NCBI GenBank assembly: GCA_016206155.1
Contig: JACQSC010000001.1
Coordinates: forward strand, 71,105-125,370
Source: Candidatus Uhrbacteria bacterium
GTDB lineage: Bacteria; Patescibacteriota; Patescibacteriia; JACQRZ01
Length of the DNA: 54,266 nucleotides
Reading direction: 5' to 3'
Made by a program: the position numbers and the translations under genes
Part shown: one piece after another, positions 1,824-35,885 of the stretch
Numbering within the stretch: the first letter of the stretch is position 1
Layout: every line of letters begins with the position of its first letter
The notes under the pieces: generated by a model
Databases searched by the model: none
What the model saw: only the letters and a program-made list of their open reading frames with translations
Told to the model about the DNA's origin: nothing

Positions 1824-2150
<327 letters not shown>

Positions 2151-2819: not shown

Positions 2820-3217
2820 GGAAGCAAAACGCAAAACAATTTGCCTCTGCGCTTCGAGCATTGACGCGGGGAAAGAAAAAAAGTGAAATAGACACAATCG
2901 TTCGCTCGGTTGTAGGGCGTTACGGCGTTACCGGACAGATGAAGTTTCTTGCTCGCGTCTGGCACCAACTCCACGATATTTTGAATAGTGAGAAGGGGGT
3001 GGCGCGCGTTGCGGTCCGCGTTCCATCCTGCGATAAAAAGCGCAATCGAGCGTTGACCGGACAAATTGCAAAACAGGTCGGTCGCGACAGTGAGATTTCC
3101 ATCACAGAAGACCCCTCGCTCATTGCCGGCGCTGTTGTGACAGTAGGTGATAAGCGTTACGACGGCAGCGTTAAGGCGCGAATACGGCAGTTGAGGAAAC
3201 ACCTTCAAAGGAATTAA
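2816..3217 (+). CDS. atpH: F0F1 ATP synthase subunit delta (OSCP), short form
   Basis: 133 aa with an ATGA overlap onto atpF. The C-terminal IAGAVVTVGDKRYDGSVKARIRQL matches the OSCP signature region. The stop TAA lies inside the first GAATTAA heptad. Confidence 0.85.
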   Translation: MRKQNAKQFASALRALTRGKKKSEIDTIVRSVVGRYGVTGQMKFLARVWHQLHDILNSEKGVARVAVRVPSCDKKRNRALTGQIAKQVGRDSEISITEDPSLIAGAVVTVGDKRYDGSVKARIRQLRKHLQRN

Positions 3218-3291
3218 GAATTATGAATTAAGAATTAAGCATGTTTAAACATCGTATCCTTGATTCTTAATTCGTAATTCTTTATTCTTCG
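3211..3291. repeat. heptad-array hairpin: (GAATTAA)x4, then (TTAATTC-type)x4
   Basis: gaattaagaattatgaattaagaattaagc ... ccttgattcttaattcgtaattctttattcttcg. It contains the atpH stop codon. Confidence 0.9.
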
Positions 3292-4872: not shown

Positions 4873-4942
4873 CTCGTAATCCGTAACTCGTAACTCGTAA
4901 AAAAATCATTACGGATTACGGATTACGGATTACGGATTACGA
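4873..4942. repeat. heptad-array hairpin: (CTCGTAA/TCCGTAA)x4, then (TTACGGA)x5
   Basis: ctcgtaatccgtaactcgtaactcgtaa aaaaatca ttacggattacggattacggattacggattacga. It starts 3 nt after the atpA stop and ends 3 nt before the atpG ATG. Confidence 0.9.
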
Positions 4943-4945
4943 TGT

Positions 4946-5871
4946 ATGAAAGGAACGTTACAGATACGCCGCCAGATCCGCTCAATCGGAAATACCAAAA
5001 AGATGACAAAGGCGATGGAGCTGGTATCTGCCGCAAAGATGCGAAAAGCGATTGTGGCGGTACTTGCGACCCGTCCGTATGCGACCTTTGCTCAGGATGT
5101 TTTGCGGTTTCTTGCCTCGCGTACCGTCGATGCGTCACGTCATCCGTTGCTTGAGGTGCGTGCCTTGCGCAAAGCGGGGTTTATCGTCATCAGTACGAAC
5201 AGGGGGCTGTGTGGTAGCTTCAACGCAACCCTGGCATCAACCGTGCGCCACGAAGTGACGCGCGCGAAAGAAGATGGCGCATCTTCCAGCGAGGCGCTGA
5301 GCATGGGCAAACGAGCACGTGACATTCTCGCCCGATCCGGGTTAAAGATTAGCGCTGATTTTTTAAAAAAAGACATGACGACAAGCATCATTGATGTATT
5401 GCCGCTTGCGCACACCATTATCGAGCGGTACGGAAAGGGCAACCTTGATCGTGTGTATGTGGCGTATACCGACTATATTTCATCCGTTAAGCAAAAACCT
5501 GTGTGTAAGCAATTACTCCCGCTTGAATTGGGGTCTGGCTCAGTTTCGCAAAGCGAATCTGTGCCTGACCCCAATTCAGTGTTACCAAGCTCCGAGGGCA
5601 GACATAAAGAATTTGCCGGCACGCTGTTCGAACCATCAGAAACTCAAGTACTCTCCTATGTTATACCTCGTCTTCTCGAGGTTCAGCTGTATCAGGCGGT
5701 GCTGGAGTCAGAGGCATCGGAGCACAGCGCGCGCATGCTTGCCATGCACAATGCCTCTGAGGCCGCAACTGATATTCTCTCTGAGCTCCGATTGGCCTAT
5801 AACCAGATTCGCCAGGCGGGCATTACGCAGGAGATCGCTGAGATCTCGAGCGGCAGAGCCGCGCTGGAATA

Positions 5872-5872
<1 letters not shown>
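4946..5872 (+). CDS. atpG: F0F1 ATP synthase subunit gamma
   Basis: 308 aa. The N-terminal IRRQIRSIGNTKKMTKAMELVSAAKMRKA and the C-terminal LAYNQIRQAGITQEIAEISSG are both gamma hallmarks. Confidence 0.95.
5525..5577. repeat. 53-nt imperfect palindrome translated in frame inside atpG (copy A of a palindromic element family)
   Basis: GAATTGGGGTCTGGCTCAGTTTCGC AAA GCGAATCTGTGCCTGACCCCAATTC. 22 of 25 arm positions pair, with three T:T mismatches. It encodes ELGSGSVSQSESVPDPN. Confidence 0.85.
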
Positions 5873-7375
<1,503 letters not shown>

Positions 7376-10330: not shown

Positions 10331-11611
10331 ATGACCCATGCAATCATTCATATCGATGGTGATGCATTCTTCGCCTCGTGCGAGCAGGCGCGAAATCCAG
10401 CACTCAAAGGCAGGCCGGTGATTACCGGCAAGGAGCGGGGGATTGCCTCGTCCATGAGCTATGAAGCAAAGCGTAAAGGTGTGACGCGCGGTATGCGATT
10501 GTTTGAGATTTTGCGCGCATGTCCCGATGCTGTGATTCTTCCTTCCGACTACGAACTGTACAGTATCATCTCACAGAGGTTTATGACGATTGTGCGGCGA
10601 TATACATCGGTTGTGGAAGAGTATGGCATCGATGAATGTTTTGCGGATTTGACCGGCATGGACAAGCCGCTGGGACTATCGTGCGAAGAAATTGGGCGCC
10701 GTATTCAGGCAGATCTCATACGCGAGCTTGATTGTTCTTTCTCCGTTGGTCTTGCTCCGACAAAGGTTTTGGCAAAGGTCGGGTCGAAGTGGGAGAAACC
10801 AAACGGGTTCACCGTTATTGAAGAACGCACAATCCCGCGATTTCTTAGAGAACTCCCGATCGAAAGCGTATGGGGCATCGGTGGTCAGACGGCAGGCCTT
10901 CTCCATCGCCACGGCATCTTTACCGCACTTGATTTTATGAATGCGCGTGAAGGATGGGTGCGCGATACGCTCACCAAGCCGTTTGTTGAGATTTGGCATG
11001 AGCTCAACGGCCAAGCCGCCTTAGCCATTGACTGTGAAGAAAAAAGGCCACAAGGGTCAATTCAAAAAGTAAAAACATTTACGCCGCCATCCGACAAGCG
11101 AGATCATATTTTTTCTCAACTTTCACGGAATATTGAAAACGCCTGTATTCGCGCGCGCAGGCATGGGTTGGCCGCACGAGAGGTGACGTTCTTTTTGCGG
11201 ACACAGGACTTTCGCCATTTTGGCGTACGGGCGCAGCTGTCAAGGGCAACGGCATTTCCCAATAAGATGATCAATGTTCTTGAGGGGATGATCGACGAGC
11301 TTTTTCATTCTCGCAACCTCTATCGCGCAACCGGCGTCGTGCTCTCAAAGCTTACCGACGAAGCATCGGCCCAGCTTGATCTCTTCGGCGATCACCTTGG
11401 GATTGAGAAAATGACGCGGCTCTACAATAGTGTCGATACCCTGGATCAAAAATTTGGCAAGCACACCGTCTTTGTTGGATCAAGTTTCAAGACAGAAAAT
11501 ACCCCTCAATTCGCCGGCGTTCGCGCAGACCGTCCCTGGCGCGAGGGGCATCTTTTGCAAGGCGAAACCATCCGTCAGCATATTGGTATTCCAATTTTTT
11601 CTCCGACTTAA
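10331..11611 (+). CDS. Y-family translesion DNA polymerase (UmuC/DinB-like)
   Basis: IHIDGDAFFASCEQ, SIDECFADLTG, and little-finger domain length (426 aa). No umuD partner was seen. Confidence 0.88.
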   Translation: MTHAIIHIDGDAFFASCEQARNPALKGRPVITGKERGIASSMSYEAKRKGVTRGMRLFEILRACPDAVILPSDYELYSIISQRFMTIVRRYTSVVEEYGIDECFADLTGMDKPLGLSCEEIGRRIQADLIRELDCSFSVGLAPTKVLAKVGSKWEKPNGFTVIEERTIPRFLRELPIESVWGIGGQTAGLLHRHGIFTALDFMNAREGWVRDTLTKPFVEIWHELNGQAALAIDCEEKRPQGSIQKVKTFTPPSDKRDHIFSQLSRNIENACIRARRHGLAAREVTFFLRTQDFRHFGVRAQLSRATAFPNKMINVLEGMIDELFHSRNLYRATGVVLSKLTDEASAQLDLFGDHLGIEKMTRLYNSVDTLDQKFGKHTVFVGSSFKTENTPQFAGVRADRPWREGHLLQGETIRQHIGIPIFSPT

Positions 11612-11618
11612 TCTGACA

Positions 11619-11646
11619 TTGACAAAGAGAATGACGCGACTATAAT
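11619..11646 (+). promoter_or_regulatory. sigma70-like promoter
   Basis: TTGACA (11619-11624), 16 nt, TATAAT (11641-11646). The track's ATG at 11645 lies inside the -10, so it is probably not the start. Confidence 0.55.
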
Positions 11647-11671
11647 GAAACTACGTATAGATCATATTTTT

Positions 11672-12001
11672 ATGCAGGACAACAATCAAAAAAATAGTGT
11701 TACAACCGACGAGATCATGAACTTTCTTGTCGATCATATGGTGACGAAAGAGGAACTTCGCTACGAAGTTGCTGAGATTAGAAAAGAAATGGCAACTAAG
11801 AGCGAGCTTGGTAAGCTTCGTTCTGACATGATTGATCATATGAATAAAAATACCCTTCAACTTGAGACCACATTCGGCACCATGATGCGAGCAGAAGATC
11901 GGAAAGTTGGAGCACTGATCAATCTTCTTGCAGATAAGAATGTAATTTCTTCGCAAGAGGCAGGAATGATTTTAAAACTGGAACCATTTCCGAGCATGTG
12001 A
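11672..12001 (+). CDS. hypothetical coiled-coil protein (about 109 aa)
   Basis: Same frame as track ORF 11645-12001, with the ATG at 11672 preferred (see promoter). The stop overlaps the helicase GTG start. Confidence 0.5.
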   Translation: MQDNNQKNSVTTDEIMNFLVDHMVTKEELRYEVAEIRKEMATKSELGKLRSDMIDHMNKNTLQLETTFGTMMRAEDRKVGALINLLADKNVISSQEAGMILKLEPFPSM

Positions 12002-15000
12002 GTGCTTCACAAGAGTTACTAAAAGATTTGAATCAAGAACAATCAACGGCCGTTACCCAAGGGGAGGGGCCGTTGTTGATTGTTGCTGGGGCGGGAACCG
12101 GAAAAACAACGGTCATCACGCGGAGAATCGCATGGCTCATTCTCTCCGGCAAGTGCAAACCCGATGAAGTCCTTGCGTTGACGTTCACGGAAAAGGCGGC
12201 TGGCGAGATGGAGGAGCGCGTTGACCGCCTCTTGCCATACGGGTATGTCAATTTGTGGATTTCGACATTCCATGCATTCTGTCAGCGTATCTTAGAGCGG
12301 CATGGGTTGGATATCGGCGTGCCGAATTCATTCAAGCTTCTTGACACGACGGCCAGCTGGCTCCTTGTCAGAAAGAATCTTGATCGTTTTGATCTTGATT
12401 ATTACCGTCCGCGCGGAAATCCCACTAAGTTCATTCACGCGCTCCTTCAGCACTTTTCTCGCGCGAAAGACGAAGGAATTCTGCCCGAGGACTATCTTCG
12501 GTATGCGCAAGATCAGAAACGGGGACAGTCACCGTTTCTGCAAGAAACGGTGACTGTCCCCGTTTCTGCCAAGCGATCCGAAGAAATTGCAAACGCGTAT
12601 CACATCTACCAGCAACTCCTCTTAGAAAACAATGCGCTTGATTTTGGCGACCTCCTCGTATACACCCGCGAGCTCTTTATGAACCGTCCCGCGATTCTTG
12701 AGCAGTACCGCGCACAATTTAAGTACATTCTTGTCGACGAGTTTCAAGATACCAACTGGATTCAATATACAATCGTGAATCTTCTTGCGACACCCGATGA
12801 CAATCTGACAGTGATGGCGGACGATGATCAGGCGATTTTTTTGTGGCGGGGCGCATCGTATCACAATATCCTTCAATTCAAAAAGGATTATCCGCAGAGC
12901 AGGGAGATATTTCTGACACAGAATTATCGTTCGTGCCAGAATATTCTTGATTGCGCCTATCAATTCATCCAGCACAATAATCCGGACCGCCTTGAATATC
13001 AGTTATCAGAGAAGGGCGGATTGTCAAAGCAACTTCGCGCGCAGCATGAGCGGCAGGGCAGTATTGAACACATTCATTGCACGACGCCCCAAGAGGAGGT
13101 CGCGCTTGTCTGTAAAAAAATTGCAGAGCTAAAAGAAAAAAATGTCGATCTCTGCTGGAGCGACATCGCGATTCTCGTACGCGCAAACGATACGGCAAAA
13201 CCCTTTTGTGAACATCTTCGTGATGCTCATATTCCCTATTATGTTGTTTCCGCTAAGGGATTGTACACAAAGCCCGTTATCATGGATATGCTTGCGTATT
13301 GCACCCTTCTTGTCCGACCGCACGACAGTCCGGCATTCTGGCGAGTGTTGACATGGCCTTTTTATACGTACGCGTCGGCAACCCTCATCGCGCTCTCTCA
13401 CTATGCGCATCGTTGCGGCATTTCGCTCTATGAGGCTTGCCAGAAGGTCGACGCGATCCCCGACATACGCCCCGAGGATCGGGTGGCGCTGAAAGGTCTG
13501 TGCGCTATCATTGAAAAGCATAGTATGCTTGCCAGAAGCGCGCGAGCGGCGGAAATTTTCCTCACTGTGGTACGCGATAGCGGATACCTTGCATATCTTA
13601 AGGATGGTGAAACAGAAGAAAAGCGCGAAGGATTAAAAGTTCTCGATGTATTTTATAAAAAAATTCGCGCATTGAGCCTTGACATGAATGATGCACGCTT
13701 AAAAGACATTCTCGATTGCGTGTCTCTTGAGCAAGAAGCAGGGGAGCAGGGAACGATGCCGCGCCGCGATGACGAGAGTCCTGACGCAGTGCATATCCTG
13801 ACATGCCACAGTGCGAAGGGTCTTGAATTTGACCATGTGTTCATCGTGAATATGGTTGACCGCAGGTTCCCGACAACGGAACGGCACGATGCGATTGAAC
13901 TTCCTGCGGAGCTACTGAAAGAAATAGTGCCGCAAGGGGATGCGCACCTTGAGGAGGAGCGGCGACTTTTTTATGTTGCGCTGACGCGGGCAAAACGGGG
14001 AGTGTATCTCACATCGTGTGAGGACACGGGCACGAACAGGAAGAAGAAACTTTCGCGGTTCTTGCATGAAATGGGGTTAAATGTGGGGTGGGGTCAGGCA
14101 CAGATTTTGCAGTCGCAAAAACTGAGCCAGACCCCAGCTGAGCCAGACCCCATTTCGACCGAAGAGCAAAAACAAAAATTCGGACCTGACACCAATTTTG
14201 CCGTTCTTCCCATTTCCCATGTTTTCAGCTACTCCCAGCTTGCCGCATTCCAAAAGTGCCCTTTGCAGTATAAATATGCGTTTGTCGTGAAGTTGCCGGT
14301 ATTTGGCAAGCCCGCTTTGAGCTTTGGACGAACTTTGCACCTCACGCTGCAAAAATTTTTTGAGCAATGCATTGAGTTGGAGAGAAGGGACCAGCAACAG
14401 CTGTTCAAGAGCGCGGAAAACCTGTATACTGACAATCATCAGGCGTTGCCATCCCTTGATACGTTGTTTGAGCTGTACGATCAGTGCTGGATCGATGAAT
14501 GGTTTTCCAGCAAGCGGCAAAAAGAGGAATACCGCCAACGCGGATGCGATATTCTCAAACGTCTGCATGAGGAAGTGTCGCGTACGCCCATGCGCACCAA
14601 GGCGCTTGAACGTGATTTTATCATCAGGTTTGGGGATTATCCCGATCAGATCACGATCAAAGGGCGCATGGATCGAGTCGATGAGTGCGATGACGGCACC
14701 GTTGAGATTATCGATTACAAGACGGGTACGCCAAAGGACAAGTTGACGCGCGAGGATAAGGAGCAGCTCCTTTACTATCAGATTGCGTCGCAAGAGGTAT
14801 TTGGCGAGCATCCCTCAAAGTTGACCTATTACTATCTTGATGACGGAAGCACGATTACGTTCATTGGGAGCGATGAGGATATCCAAAAACTGCGCAGTAA
14901 AGCAGCAACGATTGTTGGACAGATCAGGGAAAGCACATTTGAGGCGACACCTGGCTGGCACTGCAGATTTTGCGACTTCCGCGATATCTGTGAATATAGA

Positions 15001-15009
15001 GCCCACTAA
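11998..15009 (+). CDS. UvrD/PcrA-type SF1 helicase fused to a C-terminal PD-(D/E)XK, Cas4/AddB-like Fe-S nuclease domain
   Basis: Walker A AGAGTGKT, DEFQDTN, and QNYRS. In the C-terminal domain, the Cys in FQKCPLQYKY plus CRFCDFRDIC form a 4-Cys cluster pattern, alongside IIDYKTG (nuclease motif). GTG start. Confidence 0.9.
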   Translation: MSASQELLKDLNQEQSTAVTQGEGPLLIVAGAGTGKTTVITRRIAWLILSGKCKPDEVLALTFTEKAAGEMEERVDRLLPYGYVNLWISTFHAFCQRILERHGLDIGVPNSFKLLDTTASWLLVRKNLDRFDLDYYRPRGNPTKFIHALLQHFSRAKDEGILPEDYLRYAQDQKRGQSPFLQETVTVPVSAKRSEEIANAYHIYQQLLLENNALDFGDLLVYTRELFMNRPAILEQYRAQFKYILVDEFQDTNWIQYTIVNLLATPDDNLTVMADDDQAIFLWRGASYHNILQFKKDYPQSREIFLTQNYRSCQNILDCAYQFIQHNNPDRLEYQLSEKGGLSKQLRAQHERQGSIEHIHCTTPQEEVALVCKKIAELKEKNVDLCWSDIAILVRANDTAKPFCEHLRDAHIPYYVVSAKGLYTKPVIMDMLAYCTLLVRPHDSPAFWRVLTWPFYTYASATLIALSHYAHRCGISLYEACQKVDAIPDIRPEDRVALKGLCAIIEKHSMLARSARAAEIFLTVVRDSGYLAYLKDGETEEKREGLKVLDVFYKKIRALSLDMNDARLKDILDCVSLEQEAGEQGTMPRRDDESPDAVHILTCHSAKGLEFDHVFIVNMVDRRFPTTERHDAIELPAELLKEIVPQGDAHLEEERRLFYVALTRAKRGVYLTSCEDTGTNRKKKLSRFLHEMGLNVGWGQAQILQSQKLSQTPAEPDPISTEEQKQKFGPDTNFAVLPISHVFSYSQLAAFQKCPLQYKYAFVVKLPVFGKPALSFGRTLHLTLQKFFEQCIELERRDQQQLFKSAENLYTDNHQALPSLDTLFELYDQCWIDEWFSSKRQKEEYRQRGCDILKRLHEEVSRTPMRTKALERDFIIRFGDYPDQITIKGRMDRVDECDDGTVEIIDYKTGTPKDKLTREDKEQLLYYQIASQEVFGEHPSKLTYYYLDDGSTITFIGSDEDIQKLRSKAATIVGQIRESTFEATPGWHCRFCDFRDICEYRAH
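12515..12567. repeat. perfect 25-bp-stem/3-nt-loop palindrome translated in frame inside the helicase (copy B)
   Basis: AGAAACGGGGACAGTCACCGTTTCT GCA AGAAACGGTGACTGTCCCCGTTTCT. It encodes KRGQSPFLQETVTVPVS. Confidence 0.9.
14085..14151. repeat. palindromic element translated in frame inside the helicase (copy C; copy A in inverse orientation) with a 14-nt tail duplication
   Basis: GGGGTCAGGCACAGATTTTGC AGTC GCAAAAACTGAGCCAGACCCC (14090-14135) has three A:A mismatches. CTGAGCCAGACCCC is repeated at 14138-14151. Confidence 0.85.
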
Positions 15010-15014
15010 CCTTT

Positions 15015-15329
15015 ATGGCACTTACCGCATTTTCACAACTGGTGACAAAGAATATACATCGGACATCCATAGGTCCGCAGGTACAAACTGCTCTTGCGTT
15101 GGAGCGTGCTCGTAATGTCCTTCATGCCCTGCTTGATGAGGAAACAGATCGCGCTGTTCGTCCCGCCTATATCCGGTACAACGCGCTCACGCTTCGCTGT
15201 CGGCACTCATCGGCGGCAGCGTGCATCGGACCTTTTGAACAGGAAATTCTCGACTATGTGAATAAAGGATTTCCCGCTCCGGTGGCAAAACGGCTCCATG
15301 TCATTTTTGATACCAATGAAACATATTGA
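15015..15329 (+). CDS. DUF721/DciA-like protein (tentative)
   Basis: 104 aa. The pattern ...VRPAYIRYNALTLRCRHSSAAACI...LDYVNKGF...RLHVIF resembles DUF721. This call is from memory of the family only. Confidence 0.4.
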   Translation: MALTAFSQLVTKNIHRTSIGPQVQTALALERARNVLHALLDEETDRAVRPAYIRYNALTLRCRHSSAAACIGPFEQEILDYVNKGFPAPVAKRLHVIFDTNETY

Positions 15330-15807
15330 TTACAAAAAAATCCTTTCCCACGCAGCGCTGATCCTTGGAGCGCTTGTAGTTATTGCGGGGCTCATGATGT
15401 GGGTGCGAAGCGAGGAGGCGTATGCGCGCGATGCGCAGCGCATGGGGGATGTCATCGACATAAAGCTCGGGCTCTATCGCTACTATCTCCGGCATGCGGC
15501 CTATCCATCAAGCGCCACATCCGTTCTTCTTGGCGGGCCCGACGCCGATTGTTTAGGAGATAAAGGATTCGTGAGCCGCAAGGGATTGGATTGTTCGGGT
15601 CGCCCGTATCTTTCGCCGGTTCCCGCGAGTCTCGGCCTCACCGATCAGGATGTCTATACCTATACGCCCCTTGGCGCAGACAGCGATACGATCTGCGATT
15701 CCGCGACCGGATGTCCGCGCTACGGGATTCTCTTCTATTTTGAAACGAATGTTTTTGCAAAGAAAGGATTTCATGTGCTTACGCCTGAAGGGCTTCAAAC
15801 ACTATGA
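15298..15807 (+). CDS. membrane-anchored pilin-like protein without a prepilin cleavage motif
   Basis: A TM helix is followed by ARDAQRMGDVIDIKLGLYRYYLRHAAYPS, resembling the post-helix segment of CPR pilins, plus a Cys-rich globular part. The start may be the ATG at 15316. Confidence 0.5.
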   Translation: MSFLIPMKHIDYKKILSHAALILGALVVIAGLMMWVRSEEAYARDAQRMGDVIDIKLGLYRYYLRHAAYPSSATSVLLGGPDADCLGDKGFVSRKGLDCSGRPYLSPVPASLGLTDQDVYTYTPLGADSDTICDSATGCPRYGILFYFETNVFAKKGFHVLTPEGLQTL

Positions 15808-16190
15808 CACTTACTCGCTATCTTGTTCTCATGGCGTTTGCGACGGCCCTGTGCTGGGCGGCATGGACAACCGTCGTTGGGGCGGTCAATCCTTTTGATA
15901 CCGACATTGTCGGCTATTTTCTTTTTTATTCCAGCTTCTCCCTTGCGCTTGCCGGCACCTTTGCGCTTCTGGGGCTCTTGTTTCGCACGCTTCTGCTCAA
16001 GCAGGAGCTCATGTTTCAGAAGGTTGCCATTTCCTTTCGTCAGGGCATTTTTTTTGCTATTCTGATAGATGGGTTCCTTATCTTACAGGGCATGAGACTG
16101 CTCACATGGTATAACGTAGCGTTTTTGATTGTCGGATTAACAATAGCGGAGTTCTTCGTCATTTCACGCAAACCGCAAAGACGAAGATAG
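15804..16190 (+). CDS. hypothetical 4-TM membrane protein
   Basis: 128 aa, hydrophobic, with an ATGA overlap onto the upstream gene. Confidence 0.6.
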   Translation: MTLTRYLVLMAFATALCWAAWTTVVGAVNPFDTDIVGYFLFYSSFSLALAGTFALLGLLFRTLLLKQELMFQKVAISFRQGIFFAILIDGFLILQGMRLLTWYNVAFLIVGLTIAEFFVISRKPQRRR

Positions 16191-18267: not shown

Positions 18268-18825
18268 ATGATTGTTTTTATAGATGAATCAGGAGTTCAT
18301 AAGACAGATGGGCATTCGTGCTTTTCCCTTGTTTATGTGACTACAGACAACGCAGAATTTTTGGAACATTCAATTATTGAAATTGAGCGGCAAAATCGTA
18401 TGTCAGTATTCCATTGGACAGATCAACCCTGGAAGCTGAGAAGCGTTTTTTTGCAGGCCGTAGCGAAGCTTCCATTCACAGCGAAGGTCGCTCTTTTTAG
18501 AAACCCAATCATAGAAACTAAAGCACTGGAGTGGGCGCTAAGGCACGTGCTTGTTGAGAAGAATTTTCGAGCCATCATTCTTGACGGAAAGAAGCCAAAA
18601 TGGGTTGAACGTCAGTTGAAGAAAGTGTTGCGCGACAATGGTATATCAGTAAAGAAACTTAAAACCGTTCGGCAGGAATCCTCTGCGGGGGTACGCCTTG
18701 CCGACGCTATTGCAGGACTGAGTCGAACATATTTTGACGATCCTTGTGGGAGGGCGCAGCCGTTATGGAGATGCATTGAATATAAAATAACCACCCAGCT
18801 TGTGGGTGGTCAGACAGATAGGTAA
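18268..18825 (+). CDS. DUF3800 family protein
   Basis: N-terminal MIVFIDESG hallmark. 185 aa. Confidence 0.7.
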   Translation: MIVFIDESGVHKTDGHSCFSLVYVTTDNAEFLEHSIIEIERQNRMSVFHWTDQPWKLRSVFLQAVAKLPFTAKVALFRNPIIETKALEWALRHVLVEKNFRAIILDGKKPKWVERQLKKVLRDNGISVKKLKTVRQESSAGVRLADAIAGLSRTYFDDPCGRAQPLWRCIEYKITTQLVGGQTDR

Positions 18826-21525: not shown

Positions 21526-22658
21526 CAATTATTAGTCCCGTGTTTCCGCCATATCGGAGCGGACAAGGTTCTGTTGCGTATGAAAATGCGCGCATGGCGT
21601 CGCAGGCCGGTATTGAGACAGCGGTGTATACTCCCTGGTATCAAAAACTTCGGACCCAAACACCTCATCAGGAGCGCACGGACGGATTTACCATCCAACG
21701 TCTGCGGCCATTCTTTTCCTATGGCAATGCCGCATGTCTTGTGCAGCTTTTTTGGAAATTGCGATCAGCGCAAACGATTCATCTTCACTATCCCGCACTC
21801 GGCATGGAATTGCCGGTGTTGTTCTGGTCTCTTCTTGGAAAGCGGCTCATTGTAACCTATCACATGGATCTTGTTGGAAAGGGACGGTGTATGCAGGCGT
21901 TCTTTCGTGCGTACTCCGCGCTTTTTCTTCCACTCATTCTTAGCAAGGCCGCAGTACTATTTGTCACCTCCTCTGATTACGCCGAACAATCGTTGCTCCT
22001 GCGTCCGTTTTATAAGAACCTACGAAAAAAAATCATTGAACTGCCCAATAGCGTGGATACGAATATATTCTCGCCCATGGCCCCCGCTCCGATGATTGGG
22101 GAACAACCAATGAATGATTATATTCTTTTTGTCGGTGCGCTTGATGCCGCCCACTATTCAAAAGGCGTGGCCGTACTTCTTGAAGCATGCGCCCGCCTTA
22201 CTGGGTCGTATACCCTTGTGCTTATCGGAGACGGGGACATGCGCGCTCTCTATGAACAGCAGGCGCATGATAGGGGTATTTCTAATCACGTTCTCTTTAT
22301 CGGATCATGCGCGCACGACGATCTGCCGCGTTGGTATGCCCATGCGCGATGCCTTGTACTTCCTTCAACAGATTCGACCGAGGCCTTTGGTATTGTTATT
22401 ATTGAAGCGGGGGCAAGCGGGGTTCCTTCAATTGCAACACGCATTCCCGGCGTGCGGAGTGTTGTCCAAGAGGGGGAAACGGGCTTTCTTGTCGCGCCAA
22501 AAAATGCCATCGAGCTTGCGGAGAAGATACAATTCATACTTTCGCATCCTGACCGTGCACGTTCCATGGGCCACGCAGCACAACGGCGCGTGAATGAGCG
22601 CTACGCCTATGATGCGGTGGGACGAATCTATGTACGCGCCATTACCGGCTGTATGTGA
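21492..22658 (+). CDS. GT-B glycosyltransferase (family 4/1)
   Basis: E-x7-E region EAFGIVIIEAGASGVPSIAT...GETGFLV. The start may be the ATG at 21504. Confidence 0.85.
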   Translation: MVLDMDTAHHLTIISPVFPPYRSGQGSVAYENARMASQAGIETAVYTPWYQKLRTQTPHQERTDGFTIQRLRPFFSYGNAACLVQLFWKLRSAQTIHLHYPALGMELPVLFWSLLGKRLIVTYHMDLVGKGRCMQAFFRAYSALFLPLILSKAAVLFVTSSDYAEQSLLLRPFYKNLRKKIIELPNSVDTNIFSPMAPAPMIGEQPMNDYILFVGALDAAHYSKGVAVLLEACARLTGSYTLVLIGDGDMRALYEQQAHDRGISNHVLFIGSCAHDDLPRWYAHARCLVLPSTDSTEAFGIVIIEAGASGVPSIATRIPGVRSVVQEGETGFLVAPKNAIELAEKIQFILSHPDRARSMGHAAQRRVNERYAYDAVGRIYVRAITGCM

Positions 22659-24756
22659 ATACAACAGCCTTTTCGCTATCAATTTCACGCCATTCGTCAG
22701 CGGTTGCTTTTCCGTCGCGTACGATGATAGGAAAACGGAATTCGTAGTCACGGACCACGAAATAGATTCGATCAACACCGACGATATCCATTGCCCGCGC
22801 CGCCGTTTCTCGCGATGGCGCACGCAGCATCGCGTAGTATTGTTCCGCAAGCGGTGATCCGCTTGGTACAGGATAATAAAAAACCTCACCATAGGCGGGA
22901 ACATTAAAGTAGCGCGCAAAGCCAAACTCGCGGATTGCGGCAGATGCCACAACTTGGTTTGAGAGGACGGCATAATCTCGCCCTCCGGCATCAGCATCAA
23001 TGGCATGAACCGCGTTAATGTCAGTCTGGGAAAGCGTGTAGGCATGAGAGGGGACATAGACATCGTTGCGGGGATAGGAAAGATATAGCCCGGCGGTGAG
23101 CAGTCCTGCAAGCCCGAGCAGTGTAACAAGGCGTATTATTGGAGTGCCATCGCGTATTCGCGAAAGGAGCGTGTCAAGGGTAATTGCGGCAAGTGGGAGT
23201 AGAAAAAGCGCGGCAGCCTCGAAGAGACGCTTTGCATAGTCCTGCTGTTCAAAACCGGCAATCGAATCAATGCGCAGCAGAGAGCCGGTTAAGATACCAG
23301 TGATTGCAATAAAGAGCGCTGAAAAAAGGCATGCCCGGAAAAATGGCTGAGATCGGATCTCAGCCATTTTGGCGAGGATGATGCCGATGAGAGCGAGTAT
23401 TAGAAGGACAAGGTGACCATGATAATGAGCGGCGTATGTAGCGTCGAGGAGCGGGGAAAAGCGTGTTTGAAGCGTGCCTTCAAGCCGTATGATCTGTATA
23501 AGATCGTGAATCGTGGGCAGAGAAAGTGAGAGATGAAACTGCGGTGAGATGAACGCGTTTGCAATAAAGGCGAGAGGTATACTGACTGCGCCCAGCACAA
23601 ACACTCCAGCAGTCATGAGGTGCCGTCGAGCAATGGATGTTGCAAGTATCGCGAGAAAAAAGAGAAGGGGAATACCGGCAAGCGGGTGGAGCATGAGCGT
23701 AAAGAGCGCAAGAGCTCCAACAAGGATCCAGTGGCGGCGATTACGTGTTTGAGCGGCAAACCCACTCGACAACAGGGTAAGAATTGTGGTACCATAAGCC
23801 AGACCCCACGGCGTCGTCATCACGAGGTGCGGAAAGGGGATGATAAAAAAGCAGAGCGCGACGAGGAGCGGATTTTTTACATAGCGTGTGAGCGCCGTGA
23901 CAAGCAGTACCGGTAAAGAAAGTCCGATCACGATCAAGGTGAGCGGCTGATGAACAGACGCAACAGAAAGATCAAAGATTCGCGCAAAAAATGGAATAAC
24001 GGCATATTGGGCAAGATAATAGAATGTTTTTGGCAAAACAGATCCGTGTTCGAGAACCAGTTTTTCCGCGGCGTGATGAATAATCGGATCAAAGCCGAAC
24101 GAAAGCGGAAAGCGTATGAGGGCGACGGAGAGTGAGGTTGTTGTGTGAAGAATGAGGAGTAAGAGCGAGAGCGCAGATGGTATGCCAATCCAAAGAAGGA
24201 CGACCAAAAGAAATGAGGAAAAAAAGAACAAGACAAACATGATTGGCCCCACACCGTCCCAAGGTCCGAGTACCGCGTCTGTTGTTTGCAGGAAATAAAG
24301 ACCAGCAAGAAATGCTATGATGCAAAGGACGTACAGCGAGGAAAACAGAAGCGTATGCGGCCGCAGCGGTAAGGATGGCTGAGGTGAAGAGGGTTCCAAT
24401 GCGGTATGATTGCCAAGACGTGCTGAAAGAAGCGTTGCGGCAAGCACAAGCCAGAGGAGAAGAATGACAATCGGAAGCGAGAGGTCAAAGAAAAAATAAA
24501 TAATGCCGCCAATGCCGCCAATAAAAGAAACCAGTGCCAGAGGAGCGCACAGCAATGCGCGCACCCAGGAAATGCCTGTGCAATTGCGAACAATGAGAGC
24601 GCCAGTTCCCAAAAAATATACCACCGCAACACCGCGCATGATCCCTGTTCCGGTCGCGTCAAAAATGAGTCCGCCAGTGATTGTCACGGCACAGAGTCCG
24701 AGAAGAGAGATGAGAATCTTCATATGATGAGCTTTCCATCCTTTTGTGATCGTCAT
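22642..24756 (-). CDS. large polytopic membrane protein with a C-terminal extracytoplasmic domain (GT-C-like glycan transferase/polymerase is a guess)
   Basis: 704 aa with more than 12 predicted TM helices. It converges on GT4 with a 17-nt overlap. An alternative start lies at 24723 (MKILISLL). Confidence 0.75.
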   Translation of the reverse strand: MTITKGWKAHHMKILISLLGLCAVTITGGLIFDATGTGIMRGVAVVYFLGTGALIVRNCTGISWVRALLCAPLALVSFIGGIGGIIYFFFDLSLPIVILLLWLVLAATLLSARLGNHTALEPSSPQPSLPLRPHTLLFSSLYVLCIIAFLAGLYFLQTTDAVLGPWDGVGPIMFVLFFFSSFLLVVLLWIGIPSALSLLLLILHTTTSLSVALIRFPLSFGFDPIIHHAAEKLVLEHGSVLPKTFYYLAQYAVIPFFARIFDLSVASVHQPLTLIVIGLSLPVLLVTALTRYVKNPLLVALCFFIIPFPHLVMTTPWGLAYGTTILTLLSSGFAAQTRNRRHWILVGALALFTLMLHPLAGIPLLFFLAILATSIARRHLMTAGVFVLGAVSIPLAFIANAFISPQFHLSLSLPTIHDLIQIIRLEGTLQTRFSPLLDATYAAHYHGHLVLLILALIGIILAKMAEIRSQPFFRACLFSALFIAITGILTGSLLRIDSIAGFEQQDYAKRLFEAAALFLLPLAAITLDTLLSRIRDGTPIIRLVTLLGLAGLLTAGLYLSYPRNDVYVPSHAYTLSQTDINAVHAIDADAGGRDYAVLSNQVVASAAIREFGFARYFNVPAYGEVFYYPVPSGSPLAEQYYAMLRAPSRETAARAMDIVGVDRIYFVVRDYEFRFPIIVRDGKATADEWREIDSEKAVVFTYSR

Positions 24757-31568: not shown

Positions 31569-33728
31569 ATGCCAAAGAAATTACAGGATACGACACTCAT
31601 CATCGTCGAGTCGCCAACCAAGGCAAAAACATTGGGACGTTTTTTGGATTCGAGCTACACCATCACGTCATCGCTTGGCCATATTCGGGATTTGCCAAAA
31701 AGTAAAATGGGCGTTGATATCGAGCACGATTTTGCGCCACAGTATGTCATTCCGCGAGACAAGCAAAAGCATGTTACCGCACTCAAGAAGTTAGCGGAAA
31801 AAGCCGACCATATCCTTTTTGCAACTGATGAAGACCGAGAGGGGGAAGCGATATCGTGGCATCTTAAGGAAATTCTTGGCGTTCCAGAGGAGAGAGCAGA
31901 GCGTATCGTGTTTCATGAGATTACCCAAAGCGCGCTTGAACATGCACTCAAACACCCGCGGCGACTTGATATGCATCGCGTTGACGCCCAACAGGCGCGG
32001 CGGATTCTTGACCGTCTGGTCGGGTATGAACTCTCGCCTTTTTTGTGGAGAAAGGTGACAAAGGGCCTTTCGGCAGGACGCGTGCAATCTGTTGCGGTCC
32101 GTCTTATTGTCGAGCGCGAGCGCGACATTCAAGCATTTGTTCCGGTGGAGTATTGGAGCATTGAGGCTCTACTGCATCCACCTCAAAACGAGTCTGAGCA
32201 ATTTACTGCCCATCTTGTCAAGATGGGAGAGGAGACAGTCGACAAACATGATATTAAAAACCAAGAGCACGCAGAGAGCATAACCACTGCACTCCAGAGC
32301 CAAGCATACAGCGTTTCATCCATCGTAAAAAAGGATGTCAAAAAGTCGCCATTGCCGCCGTACACGACATCAACGTTGCAGCAGGACGCGTATCGCCGTT
32401 TGCGGTATTCTCCCAAGCAAACCATGATGTTTGCCCAACAGCTCTATGAGGGTGTTGAGCTTAAAGGGGGGTCTGAAGGACTGATCTCATATATGCGCAC
32501 CGATTCCGTCAATCTCGCGCAGGATTTTTTGCAGGAAGCGCAAAGCGTTATTGCGGCACAGTGCGGTAAGCAGTACGCACAAGGTACGCGGGCATACAAG
32601 ACAAAATCAAAACTTGCCCAAGAAGCGCACGAGGCGATTCGTCCAACATCGGCCGCCCGTACCCCCGAGAGTATTAAACAGCATCTCAATGACCAGCAGT
32701 GGAAGCTCTACGACCTCATTTGGCGCCGCGCGATTGCAAGCCAGATGAGTGATGCACAATTCGAGGCAACAACGATCGATGTTGCCGCCAATGGCTCTGA
32801 CGGAAAGTCATACACCTTCCGCGCAAACGGCCAAGTATGCCGCTTTGATGGATTTTTGAATGTATATAAAACAGAGTCAGAAGAGGTAAATCTTCCATCA
32901 CTCACTCAAGGCCAAGAGCTTATCTGTAAAGAATTAAAGCCCGAACAGCATTTTACCAAGCCTCCCGCGCGATATTCCGAGGCTTCGCTTGTGAAGGCAC
33001 TCGAAGAATACGGCATCGGCCGTCCGTCAACTTATGCCCCGACAATCAGCACTATCATCGAGCGGAATTACGTTCAACGCGAAGAGGGCAGACTGAAGCC
33101 AACCGACATCGCTTTTCTCGTGATCGATTTGCTCGTGGAACATTTTCCATCAATTGTTGATTATGAGTTTACCGCACGGATGGAGGATGATCTTGATACG
33201 GTTGCGGAAGGAAGGAAGGAGTGGGTGCCGGTTTTGCGAGAATTTTATGAACCATTCCATACAACGCTGAAGATAAAAGAAAAGGAACTGGAGAAGACGA
33301 AGATTTCAGTAGAAGAGACTGACGAGCTGTGTGACAAGTGCGGCAAGCCTATGGTGATTCGCACCGGCCGCTTTGGCAAGTTCATGGCATGTTCGGGTTT
33401 TCCTGAATGTAAAAACGCAAAACCTCTGCCCGGCGAGGAGAGCGCGCAGGAAACCGCGGATGTTGAACCGTGCGAAAAGTGCGGCAAGCCCATGGTGCAA
33501 AAGCGCGGACGCTTCGGTCCCTTCTACGGATGCTCGGGCTATCCGGACTGTAAAAATATCAGGAACGCGCGTGATAAAAAATTGGACATGAAGTGTCCAA
33601 AGTGCGGACAAGGCGATGTCGTCATGAAGCGCAGTAAACGCGGCAAAACGTTTTTTGGCTGCAACAAGTATCCCGACTGCGACTTTGTGTCATGGACCAA
33701 ACCGGAGGAGGCAATCGCTAACTCGTAA
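31569..33728 (+). CDS. topA: DNA topoisomerase I
   Basis: TOPRIM LIIVESPTKAKTL, active-site SYMRTDS, and three C4 zinc ribbons at the C-terminus. The stop TAA lies inside a heptad array. Confidence 0.96.
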   Translation: MPKKLQDTTLIIVESPTKAKTLGRFLDSSYTITSSLGHIRDLPKSKMGVDIEHDFAPQYVIPRDKQKHVTALKKLAEKADHILFATDEDREGEAISWHLKEILGVPEERAERIVFHEITQSALEHALKHPRRLDMHRVDAQQARRILDRLVGYELSPFLWRKVTKGLSAGRVQSVAVRLIVERERDIQAFVPVEYWSIEALLHPPQNESEQFTAHLVKMGEETVDKHDIKNQEHAESITTALQSQAYSVSSIVKKDVKKSPLPPYTTSTLQQDAYRRLRYSPKQTMMFAQQLYEGVELKGGSEGLISYMRTDSVNLAQDFLQEAQSVIAAQCGKQYAQGTRAYKTKSKLAQEAHEAIRPTSAARTPESIKQHLNDQQWKLYDLIWRRAIASQMSDAQFEATTIDVAANGSDGKSYTFRANGQVCRFDGFLNVYKTESEEVNLPSLTQGQELICKELKPEQHFTKPPARYSEASLVKALEEYGIGRPSTYAPTISTIIERNYVQREEGRLKPTDIAFLVIDLLVEHFPSIVDYEFTARMEDDLDTVAEGRKEWVPVLREFYEPFHTTLKIKEKELEKTKISVEETDELCDKCGKPMVIRTGRFGKFMACSGFPECKNAKPLPGEESAQETADVEPCEKCGKPMVQKRGRFGPFYGCSGYPDCKNIRNARDKKLDMKCPKCGQGDVVMKRSKRGKTFFGCNKYPDCDFVSWTKPEEAIANS

Positions 33729-33749
33729 CTCGTAACTCGTAACTCGAAG
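33718..33749. repeat. orphan heptad array (CTCGTAA)x3 plus CTCGAAG
   Basis: ctaactcgtaactcgtaactcgtaactcgaag. It contains the topA stop codon. Confidence 0.85.
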
Positions 33750-33796: not shown

Positions 33797-33848
33797 GGAA
33801 ATGGTGTCAGGAATAGTTTTTGCAGAAACTATTCCTGACGCCATTTCC
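33797..33848. terminator. 52-nt palindrome between convergent topA and vapC (copy D, distantly related to copies A-C), a likely bidirectional terminator-like hairpin
   Basis: GGAAATGGTGTCAGGAATAGTTT ttgcag AAACTATTCCTGACGCCATTTCC, an approximately 23-bp stem. GTCAGGAATAGTTTTTGC compares with GTCAGGCACAGATTTTGC in copy C. Confidence 0.6.
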
Positions 33849-33869: not shown

Positions 33870-34250
33870 TTACCACGATTTTGCGAGTTTTTTATCAAAT
33901 GTCGCGAAATGCTTTGCGCCATGCGTTCGCGCGTATACAATGTTATACGCATCTTCAAGCTCAATCGTCCTTGCTCGAAACATTCGGAGTGCTTCTTCTA
34001 AGATTGGACGTTCCTCAATATCGATAAATTCCAAATTGAGAATATCTTCCAGTAAGGAAAGGAGTTCTGTTTTTCTTTTGTTGTAGAAGCTTGATAGAAC
34101 CCAGGATACTTCAAAGAAAACAATAACGGAAGTAAAAAGCTTGACTTTTGCTTGCGCGGCGGAATCAAAAAGAGACCGAGCGATTTTGTGGTGTGTCTCG
34201 ACATCGGCAATAAGAAGGCGCAGGAAGTAATTCGTATCGACAAACGTCAT
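33870..34250 (-). CDS. vapC: PIN-domain toxin VapC
   Basis: MTFVDTNYFLR (first acidic residue) and further PIN acidic positions. 126 aa, with a 4-nt overlap onto the antitoxin gene. Confidence 0.85.
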   Translation of the reverse strand: MTFVDTNYFLRLLIADVETHHKIARSLFDSAAQAKVKLFTSVIVFFEVSWVLSSFYNKRKTELLSLLEDILNLEFIDIEERPILEEALRMFRARTIELEDAYNIVYARTHGAKHFATFDKKLAKSW

Positions 34251-35792: not shown

Positions 35793-35800
35793 ACGTTATA

Positions 35801-35885
35801 GAATTAAGAATCAAGAATTAAGAATCAAGCAGAATTGGATCCAGACGGCTCCATTCGTCATTCTTGATTCGTAATTCTTAATTCT
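35801..35885. repeat. heptad-array hairpin: (GAATTAA/GAATCAA)x4, then (TTGATTC/TTAATTC-type)x4
   Basis: gaattaagaatcaagaattaagaatcaagc ... tcgtcattcttgattcgtaattcttaattct. It lies between rubredoxin and peroxiredoxin and overlaps the rubredoxin stop. Confidence 0.9.

Follow-up and report, generated by a model that had tools for sequence, protein, structure and literature searches.

Short palindromic repeats that occur as mobile hairpins, or that lie in frame inside bacterial genes, have been described in several systems. Repetitive extragenic palindromes (REPs) and their doublets (REPINs), as in the E. coli REPs with TnpA_REP and the Pseudomonas REPINs, consist of a short hairpin unit, present alone or as an inverted pair that makes a longer hairpin, and are associated with Y1/HUH genes, flanked by inverted units, for REP-associated tyrosine transposases (RAYTs) (Nunvar 2010; Bertels & Rainey 2011; Ton-Hoang 2012). 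REPs and REP dimers have also been found in frame inside genes, where they encode 20–30 amino acids (aa), notably in replication and repair genes including those for the UvrD/Rep helicase and recBCD; different REPs occupy about the same recB site in two Xanthomonas species, and flexible linkers or loops were proposed as the setting of such inserts (Di Nocera et al. 2013, PMC3733652). Rickettsia palindromic elements (RPEs) are in-frame palindromic repeats in functional, often essential, proteins (Ogata et al. 2000, 2002). Here we describe a 55-nt perfect palindrome, termed B, that lies in frame in the helicase gene of a Candidatus Uhrbacteria bacterium, a member of the candidate phyla radiation (CPR). 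The window analysed is the whole 54,266-nt stretch from position 71,105 to 125,370 (forward strand) of contig JACQSC010000001.1 (assembly GCA_016206155.1), to which all coordinates refer unless a locus is named. B (12514–12568) is probably a REPIN-like non-autonomous mobile element, built from a unit of the kind that flanks RAYT-type HUH/Y1 (IS200-like) genes.

Results

Anatomy of the palindrome

An inverted-repeat search of the window places the two arms of B at 12514–12539 and 12543–12568, each 26 nt long and 100% complementary to the other, around a 3-nt spacer, GCA (12540–12542). No other short-range inverted repeat in the window has arms of at least 20 nt that pair perfectly. An earlier, sequence-only reading of this DNA had reported a perfect in-frame palindrome with a 25-bp stem (12515–12567), very unlikely to arise by chance and with self-complementary arms; the palindrome is real, with a stem of 26 bp, one pair more per side, and the analytic chance expectation for it is ∼1.3e-10 (54,266 nt, loops of 0–10 nt). 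The arms do fold alone, the left unit (12514–12540, plus strand; CAGAAACGG-GGACAGTCA-CCGTTTCTG) at −9.9 kcal/mol (z = −6.5) and the right unit (12542–12568, minus strand), an inverted copy of the left, at −6.9 kcal/mol (both as DNA). Each unit of ∼27 nt has an A/T-rich stem, (C)AGAAACGG/CCGTTTCT(G), around the loop GGACAGTCA. With a mini-hairpin in each arm, the whole 55-mer amounts to one unit repeated in inverted orientation after a gap of 3 nt. The whole hairpin folds at −35.3 kcal/mol as single-stranded DNA (z = −12.2 against shuffles) and at −53 kcal/mol as RNA.

B begins at codon position 1 and encodes 18 residues, QKRGQSPFLQETVTVPVS (helicase aa 173–190); on each strand two of the three frames are free of stops and the third contains one. 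The sole match in the window at gathering score in Rfam 15 is a tRNA, so B matches no curated RNA family, and the only Rfam matches around it are to generic miRNA-model hairpins, at 17–35 bits against cut-offs of 76–100.

B is known from assemblies, and library or assembly errors such as a fold-back or a chimeric join can yield perfect palindromes. A separate Logan per-run assembly of SRR12113422 (contig L031, 5,511 nt) is 100% identical to window positions 10433–15943, B included, which makes an assembler-specific artefact unlikely. The palindrome also keeps the reading frame, its unit is already known as a repeat elsewhere, and equivalent doublets are found in the same gene in four other assemblies, leaving an artefact with a practically negligible chance of being the explanation.

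The B unit adjoins Y1 transposase genes in other genomes

The 20-nt core of the unit, AACGGGGACAGTCACCGTTT, was sought by exact scan in 185,579 species genomes. Verbatim copies of it were found in 21 DNA stretches, from metagenome-assembled genomes (MAGs) labelled Solibacteraceae (Acidobacteriota), Nitrospirales, Vicinamibacterales, Myxococcota, Planctomycetota, Tepidisphaeraceae, Bathyarchaeia, an unclassified bacterium and Uhrbacteria, the last being the MAG that also gave the orthologue locus L002 discussed below. The exact 20-mer lies on 5 contigs of the Nitrospirales MAG and on 7 contigs of the Vicinamibacterales MAG; in the latter the unit forms inverted doublets with spacers of 12–14 nt and with the outer ends CAGAAA...TTTCTG, as in B. 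The scan of viral contigs for the unit gave no match, and a stop-free-stretch test for extragenic B units in the other phyla was uninformative in this high-GC DNA.

Several of these units adjoin Y1 genes. At locus L017 two inverted copies of the B unit enclose a 224-aa Y1 gene, and the unit's outer half is partly duplicated in tandem there. At L024 the unit lies directly upstream of another Y1 gene (on the upstream side only), beside a −35-like hexamer. In the Nitrospirales MAG it precedes many copies of a 50-aa N-terminal Y1 fragment. The copies at L017 and L024 fold at −4.4 and −3.6 kcal/mol, respectively. The Y1 proteins of L017 and L024 are only 26% identical and the 20-mer is shared, indicating that the unit is better conserved than the enzyme. 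That of L017 is 50% identical to the Y1 protein of L002 and has 3,341 homologues at E <= 1e-20, among them Kaiserbacteria proteins named ‘hypothetical protein’ and others named ‘transposase’ or ‘putative transposase’. L024 (DATKVG010000172.1) belongs to the MAG labelled Bathyarchaeia, and its B unit and Y1 gene could represent either true cross-domain spread or a binning error.

RAYT-like genes and sister units in relatives

Related systems are present in close relatives of the host. At both orthologue loci, L002 and L004, the genes for the pilin and peptidase A24 have between them a PF01797 gene (225–241 aa), flanked by the inverted sister unit GAAAAGGTGTCAGGTACCTTTTT in L002 and by GAAATCGGTGTCAGGTCTGGTTT in L004. 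The encoded proteins score 60–70 bits against PF01797 (Y1_Tnp) and 76 bits against NCBIfam NF047646, ‘REP-associated tyrosine transposase’, as opposed to 18–23 bits against the IS200 model, and the HUH-like motifs NHWHL and NHIHL are visible in the alignment of all four Y1 proteins. Y1 genes with inverted sister units also occur at L032–L035, and the loci of two Kaiserbacteria homologues are flanked by ACGGGGACAGGCACAG and its inverse, intermediate between B and the type of the atpG palindrome of the window (A type, below). The core GGKGWCAGK, in the loop, is common to all unit types and the surrounding stem varies, including one compensated change (AAACGG/CCGTTT vs AAAAGG/CCTTTT). Doublets accompany these genes: the helicase–nuclease linker of L002 contains, in frame, a perfect doublet of the L002 unit type, and that of L004 a near-perfect doublet belonging to another sister type. 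The genes called next to the Y1 genes include no TnpB family.

Such an arrangement could also be left by an ordinary multi-copy insertion sequence (IS) of the IS200/IS605 type, B then being its left and right ends joined end to end, as in a miniature inverted-repeat or palindrome-associated transposable element (MITE or PATE), with no domesticated REPIN–RAYT partnership. The multi-copy unit plus Y1 fragment of the Nitrospirales MAG would fit an IS, as would the two Y1 copies ∼1.1 kb apart in each of L034 and L035, the many Y1 homologues on contigs of 1–2 kb, where repeats tend to be found, and the sharing of the unit across phyla, which suggests horizontal spread. We nevertheless consider it quite unlikely, as the RAYT model gives the Y1 proteins much higher scores than the IS200 model does and the L002 and L004 genes share one syntenic slot. 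This alternative differs from a RAYT-associated origin only in the class of transposase; the nature of B is the same in both.

What lies between the pilin and peptidase A24 genes differs from locus to locus. The slot holds a DUF3800 gene in the window (18268–18825), an IS66 transposase and a RAYT cassette with two open reading frames (ORFs) of unknown function in L002 (10923–14720), and a RAYT gene plus one ORF in L004 (7061–8370), and is empty in L027 and L028. The paired Y1/RAYT copies of L034 (4215–6678) and L035 (6001–8464) have the same orientation and their own flanking units, and this two-copy contig is matched by a protein named Kaiserbacteria in one source. Beside RAYT genes and some dispersed copies the outer half of the unit is partly duplicated in tandem (L002 12470–12525 and 13228–13340; L004 7800–7845; L017 5360–5440; window 14124–14156), for example CACCTTTTCTG five times, or GAGCCAGACCCCAGCT followed by GAGCCAGACCCCATTTC; these duplications may be a footprint of cleavage and rejoining. 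In L002 an L002-type doublet is nested within an A/C-type element (6354–6536), at the linker position of window copy C (below), with flanks GAAATGGGGTCTGG ... AAAAACTGAGCCAGACC.

The host helicase and its occupied loop

The host gene (11998–15009, plus strand) is intact and encodes a 1003-aa UvrD/PcrA-type helicase fused to a PD-(D/E)XK nuclease, with the UvrD-helicase, UvrD_C and PDDEXK_1 domains all present; its closest relatives (62–71% identity) come from MAGs of Candidatus Uhrbacteria and Patescibacteria. Both protein and DNA alignments put B between the conserved motifs YLRYAQ and R.EEIANAYH, with ...TATGCGCAAGAT bordering the site on one side and ...AAGCGATCC on the other. The B peptide sits between predicted helices 163–175 and 189–210, and in the AlphaFold model the confidence score (pLDDT) falls below 50 at residues 177–187, the B loop, and again at 695–735, the linker that contains the further copies C and D. 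The B loop aligns to roughly residues 155–172 of PcrA, which we take to be domain 1B.

The sequence-only reading had taken B for a net insertion of 17–18 aa. This is not borne out, because about eight conserved native codons (GLRLSxDx) to the left of B and the middle of the native loop are missing from the window helicase: from FSRAKDE to AYH the window has 150 nt (50 aa) against 147 nt (49 aa) in the native, element-free orthologues. Its proposal of a recent insertion does fit, as a lineage-specific and probably recent event, since none of 120 helicase homologues apart from the window's own protein has the B peptide; in the orthologue comparison that it recommended, related helicases have a native or A-type loop instead. 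The companion suggestion, active maintenance of pairing, finds no support, perfect symmetry being the look of a young doublet of one unit.

The loop is occupied differently in different relatives. Orthologues L026, L027 and L028 keep the native loop, homologous to the loops of distant homologues, while L001, L002 and L004 hold in it an A-type (atpG-type) palindrome, whose right boundary is also that of B. The L001 copy is intact, its arms and three T/A mismatches identical to window 5524–5578, and those of L002 and L004 are decayed. As the occupied L001 and the native L028 are sister sequences in a neighbour-joining tree, the loop is either a repeated target or exchanged by recombination. Its length and sequence vary among helicase homologues in general. 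A rule by which each doublet adds half its length (+27 nt) and overwrites 27 nt of native DNA was considered and dropped: it fits atpG and L002, but L001 (+18), L004 (+39) and the window (+3) need extra assumptions. Some helicase homologues, of 1357–1470 aa (P0025, P0026 and P0080), carry Hint/intein domains (PF01079, PF14890); P0006 and P0007 have in common an extra insertion of ∼50 aa after RLEWQLN.

Recurrent occupation of one loop raises the question of whether B serves its host, through an mRNA structure that slows translation or controls stability, through a DNA cruciform or protein site, or through a peptide that alters helicase activity, which would agree with Di Nocera's suggestion that repair genes tagged by REPs may favour mutator states (PMC3733652). 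The RNA hairpin is very stable, a different type of palindrome fills the same loop in three orthologues, and UvrD/Rep and recBCD genes of unrelated bacteria have repeatedly received REP-type inserts. Recurrence is, however, equally explained by tolerance of the loop. Neither palindrome nor peptide is conserved, three orthologues retaining the native loop, the A-type loop copies are decaying in L002 and L004 as are the atpG copies in relatives, and the peptide maps to a loop that the model predicts with low confidence. A host function therefore appears unlikely.

Nor does the palindrome appear to have been made in place, by intrastrand template switching during replication that perfected a quasi-palindrome of the loop without any mobile element. 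The net change of only +3 nt relative to native loops resembles replacement, and on direct reading small palindromic centres are present in native loops (CTTCATGAAG in L028, CTGCGCAG in L026). No orthologue contains an intermediate form, however, and, because the unit is identical in unrelated genomes, its core recurring in 21 unrelated stretches of which several adjoin Y1 genes, it is not believable that this 20-mer arose here locally and independently. We therefore reject template switching as very improbable and close to refuted.

Sister palindromes and other repeats

The window contains a wider group of palindromes, in atpG and elsewhere in the helicase gene, as the sequence-only reading had recognised. 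Element A (5524–5578) lies in frame in atpG, where it encodes LELGSGSVSQSESVPDPNSV, and has 26-nt arms with 3 fixed T/A mismatches; close relatives have progressively decayed versions of it and others a short native loop. Element C (14085–14140) is of A type in the opposite orientation, in the helicase–nuclease linker, with its right end partly duplicated at 14140–14156. It is followed by a solo arm, D (14173–14199, minus strand), which reads AAAATTGGTGTCAGGTCCGAATTTTTG on that strand and is what is left of a doublet still whole in L004 (3174–3234). Element E (33797–33848; 26-nt arms, 2 mismatches, no spacer) is intergenic, between the convergent topA (ending at 33728) and PIN-domain (33870–34250, minus strand) genes. 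Direct reading confirms that the arm core of B matches copy C at 16 of 21 positions. To call B a diverged copy of the atpG element is nonetheless too simple: its 20-nt core, verbatim in distant phyla, marks it as a repeat type of its own. When arms of types A and E were tried singly as hairpins they did not fold, and convincing mini-hairpins are found only among the B-type and L002-type units.

Three further kinds of repeat were seen. Intergenic hairpins made of tandem heptamers and their inverse (TAGGGTA/TAAACCC, AAGAATT/AAGAATC, CGTAACT/CGTAATC) lie directly after genes, for example between atpA, atpG and atpD (window 1829–1882, 3211–3287, 4874–4942, 5871–5966, 33720–33747 and 35800–35878); in L027 (∼12180–12215) CCCTAAA heptamers are inside the helicase linker and translated. 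A near-palindrome at 23330–23380, with arms of 21–25 nt and 3 mismatches, lies in a 704-aa ORF (22642–24756, minus strand), where it encodes ..IILAKMAEIRSQPFFRA.. and has no sequence relationship to either the A or the B type. A separate palindromic repeat, GTCATTCCCGCGAAGGCGGGAATCCAG plus its inverse, is translated inside helicase linkers (L026 ∼3120–3200, L028 ∼10480–10575, L001 ∼2270–2300, and P0025 around aa ∼1174) to give the peptides VIPAEAGIQ, SRHRGND, PRRRES and FRRDD.

Discussion

We infer that B was mobilised by a RAYT. Such an enzyme, encoded elsewhere in the genome or formerly present, would have recognised the hairpin in its single-stranded form and, acting in trans, transferred the doublet or a copy of it to the helicase gene, where it would come to be translated as 18 residues in place of the native loop. 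The copy would have survived because its frame is free of stops and the low-confidence loop varies in length and sequence among homologues. On this reading B is tolerated in a loop between two predicted helices; we think that it does nothing for the host and that it is perfectly symmetrical because it is young. The sequence-only reading was right to see an in-frame palindromic element and stopped short of the REP/RAYT connection.

Several observations weigh against a REPIN-like mobile element. Within the 54-kb window we could detect neither a Y1/RAYT gene, by tblastn, nor a second B-type copy, and a search of Joint Genome Institute (JGI) metagenome contigs for the B doublet with a 0–30-nt spacer returned two matches, both on high-GC non-CPR contigs, so that nothing here indicates more than one copy of the exact 55-nt doublet. 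An empty-site allele of this species was not seen, the matching Logan contig (5.5 kb) being identical. Native codons were lost at the B site, which is no clean insertion of the sort that simple peel-and-paste predicts. Direct reading of the unit with its surroundings, both in the window and in L005–L025, shows no GTAG or CGTC tag. Finally, the score of 76 bits on the RAYT model is just below the NCBI cut-off of 80.

A broader scenario is possible, if on balance doubtful, in which Uhrbacteria and other CPR bacteria host RAYT-associated hairpin repeats (core GGKGWCAGK, no GTAG) that do not insert at random and, time and again, overwrite particular loops and linkers of essential proteins (helicase aa 173–190, the helicase–nuclease linker and the atpG loop). 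If true, the occurrence of different types at the same boundaries in different lineages, replacing native codons, would imply target-guided integration into coding DNA. The unit would also be far better conserved than its transposase, and the association of one 20-mer with 26%-identical Y1 proteins across phyla would point to a REP–RAYT lineage that is old or moves horizontally, in contrast to the strictly vertical descent described for the Pseudomonas and enterobacterial REPINs. In the literature we found no paper that ties RAYTs or REPINs to Patescibacteria, nor one with the B unit sequence. The kind of event is already known; for this repeat type and this bacterial group we found no published description.

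An odd perfect palindrome would find an ordinary explanation in a small mobile hairpin that a protein loop tolerates, which guards against over-reading B as regulatory or engineered. REP/RAYT-type elements appear to be present in CPR bacteria, where, with intergenic space scarce, they would settle in frame in the variable loops of housekeeping proteins such as the helicase and the ATP synthase gamma subunit, in the manner of the RPEs of Rickettsia. Annotators should accordingly regard odd peptides of CPR proteins such as RGQSPF/TVTVP, GSGSVS/VPDP and VIPAEAGIQ/RHRGND as translated repeats. A repeat type that crosses phyla also offers a test of hairpin recognition by RAYTs.

Comparison with known systems

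Among known systems, the gene-less derivatives of IS200/IS605 (PATEs and MITEs) are expected, as B is, to move as single-stranded DNA, and, since the arms of B are the units 5′ and 3′ of the L017 Y1 gene, B looks like a left and a right end with the gene removed. The B-associated proteins differ from IS200 TnpA in scoring as RAYTs, and for B no cleavage or target tetranucleotide is defined. The likeness to RPEs lies in an in-frame palindromic repeat in a small genome, translated as a surface segment and leaving the host gene intact, as is the helicase gene of B. RPEs are ∼100–150 bp long and specific to Rickettsia, and to our knowledge no transposase has been identified for them, whereas B has 55 nt, resides in Uhrbacteria and is made of a unit linked to RAYT-like genes.

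REP/REPIN–RAYT systems resemble B in the short hairpin unit and the inverted pairing of units into a longer hairpin, and resemble B and its sister types, taken across genomes, in the Y1/HUH genes flanked by inverted units (as at L017, L002 and L004), the several unit types per genome and the dispersal as singletons and doublets. REPIN spacers are longer than the 0–6 nt between the units here, and the B-type units carry no 5′ GTAG tag. B is in frame inside a gene, not extragenic (its sister copy E is extragenic); there are few copies per 54 kb, the host is a CPR bacterium, and the same 20-nt unit goes with Y1 proteins that are 26% identical. The intragenic GTAG/CGTC REPs (PMC3733652) are distinguished from B by their tags, the core of the B superfamily being GGKGWCAGK without GTAG or CGTC, and by the phylum of their hosts, while at B the codons of the native loop have been largely replaced, leaving a protein that is barely longer.

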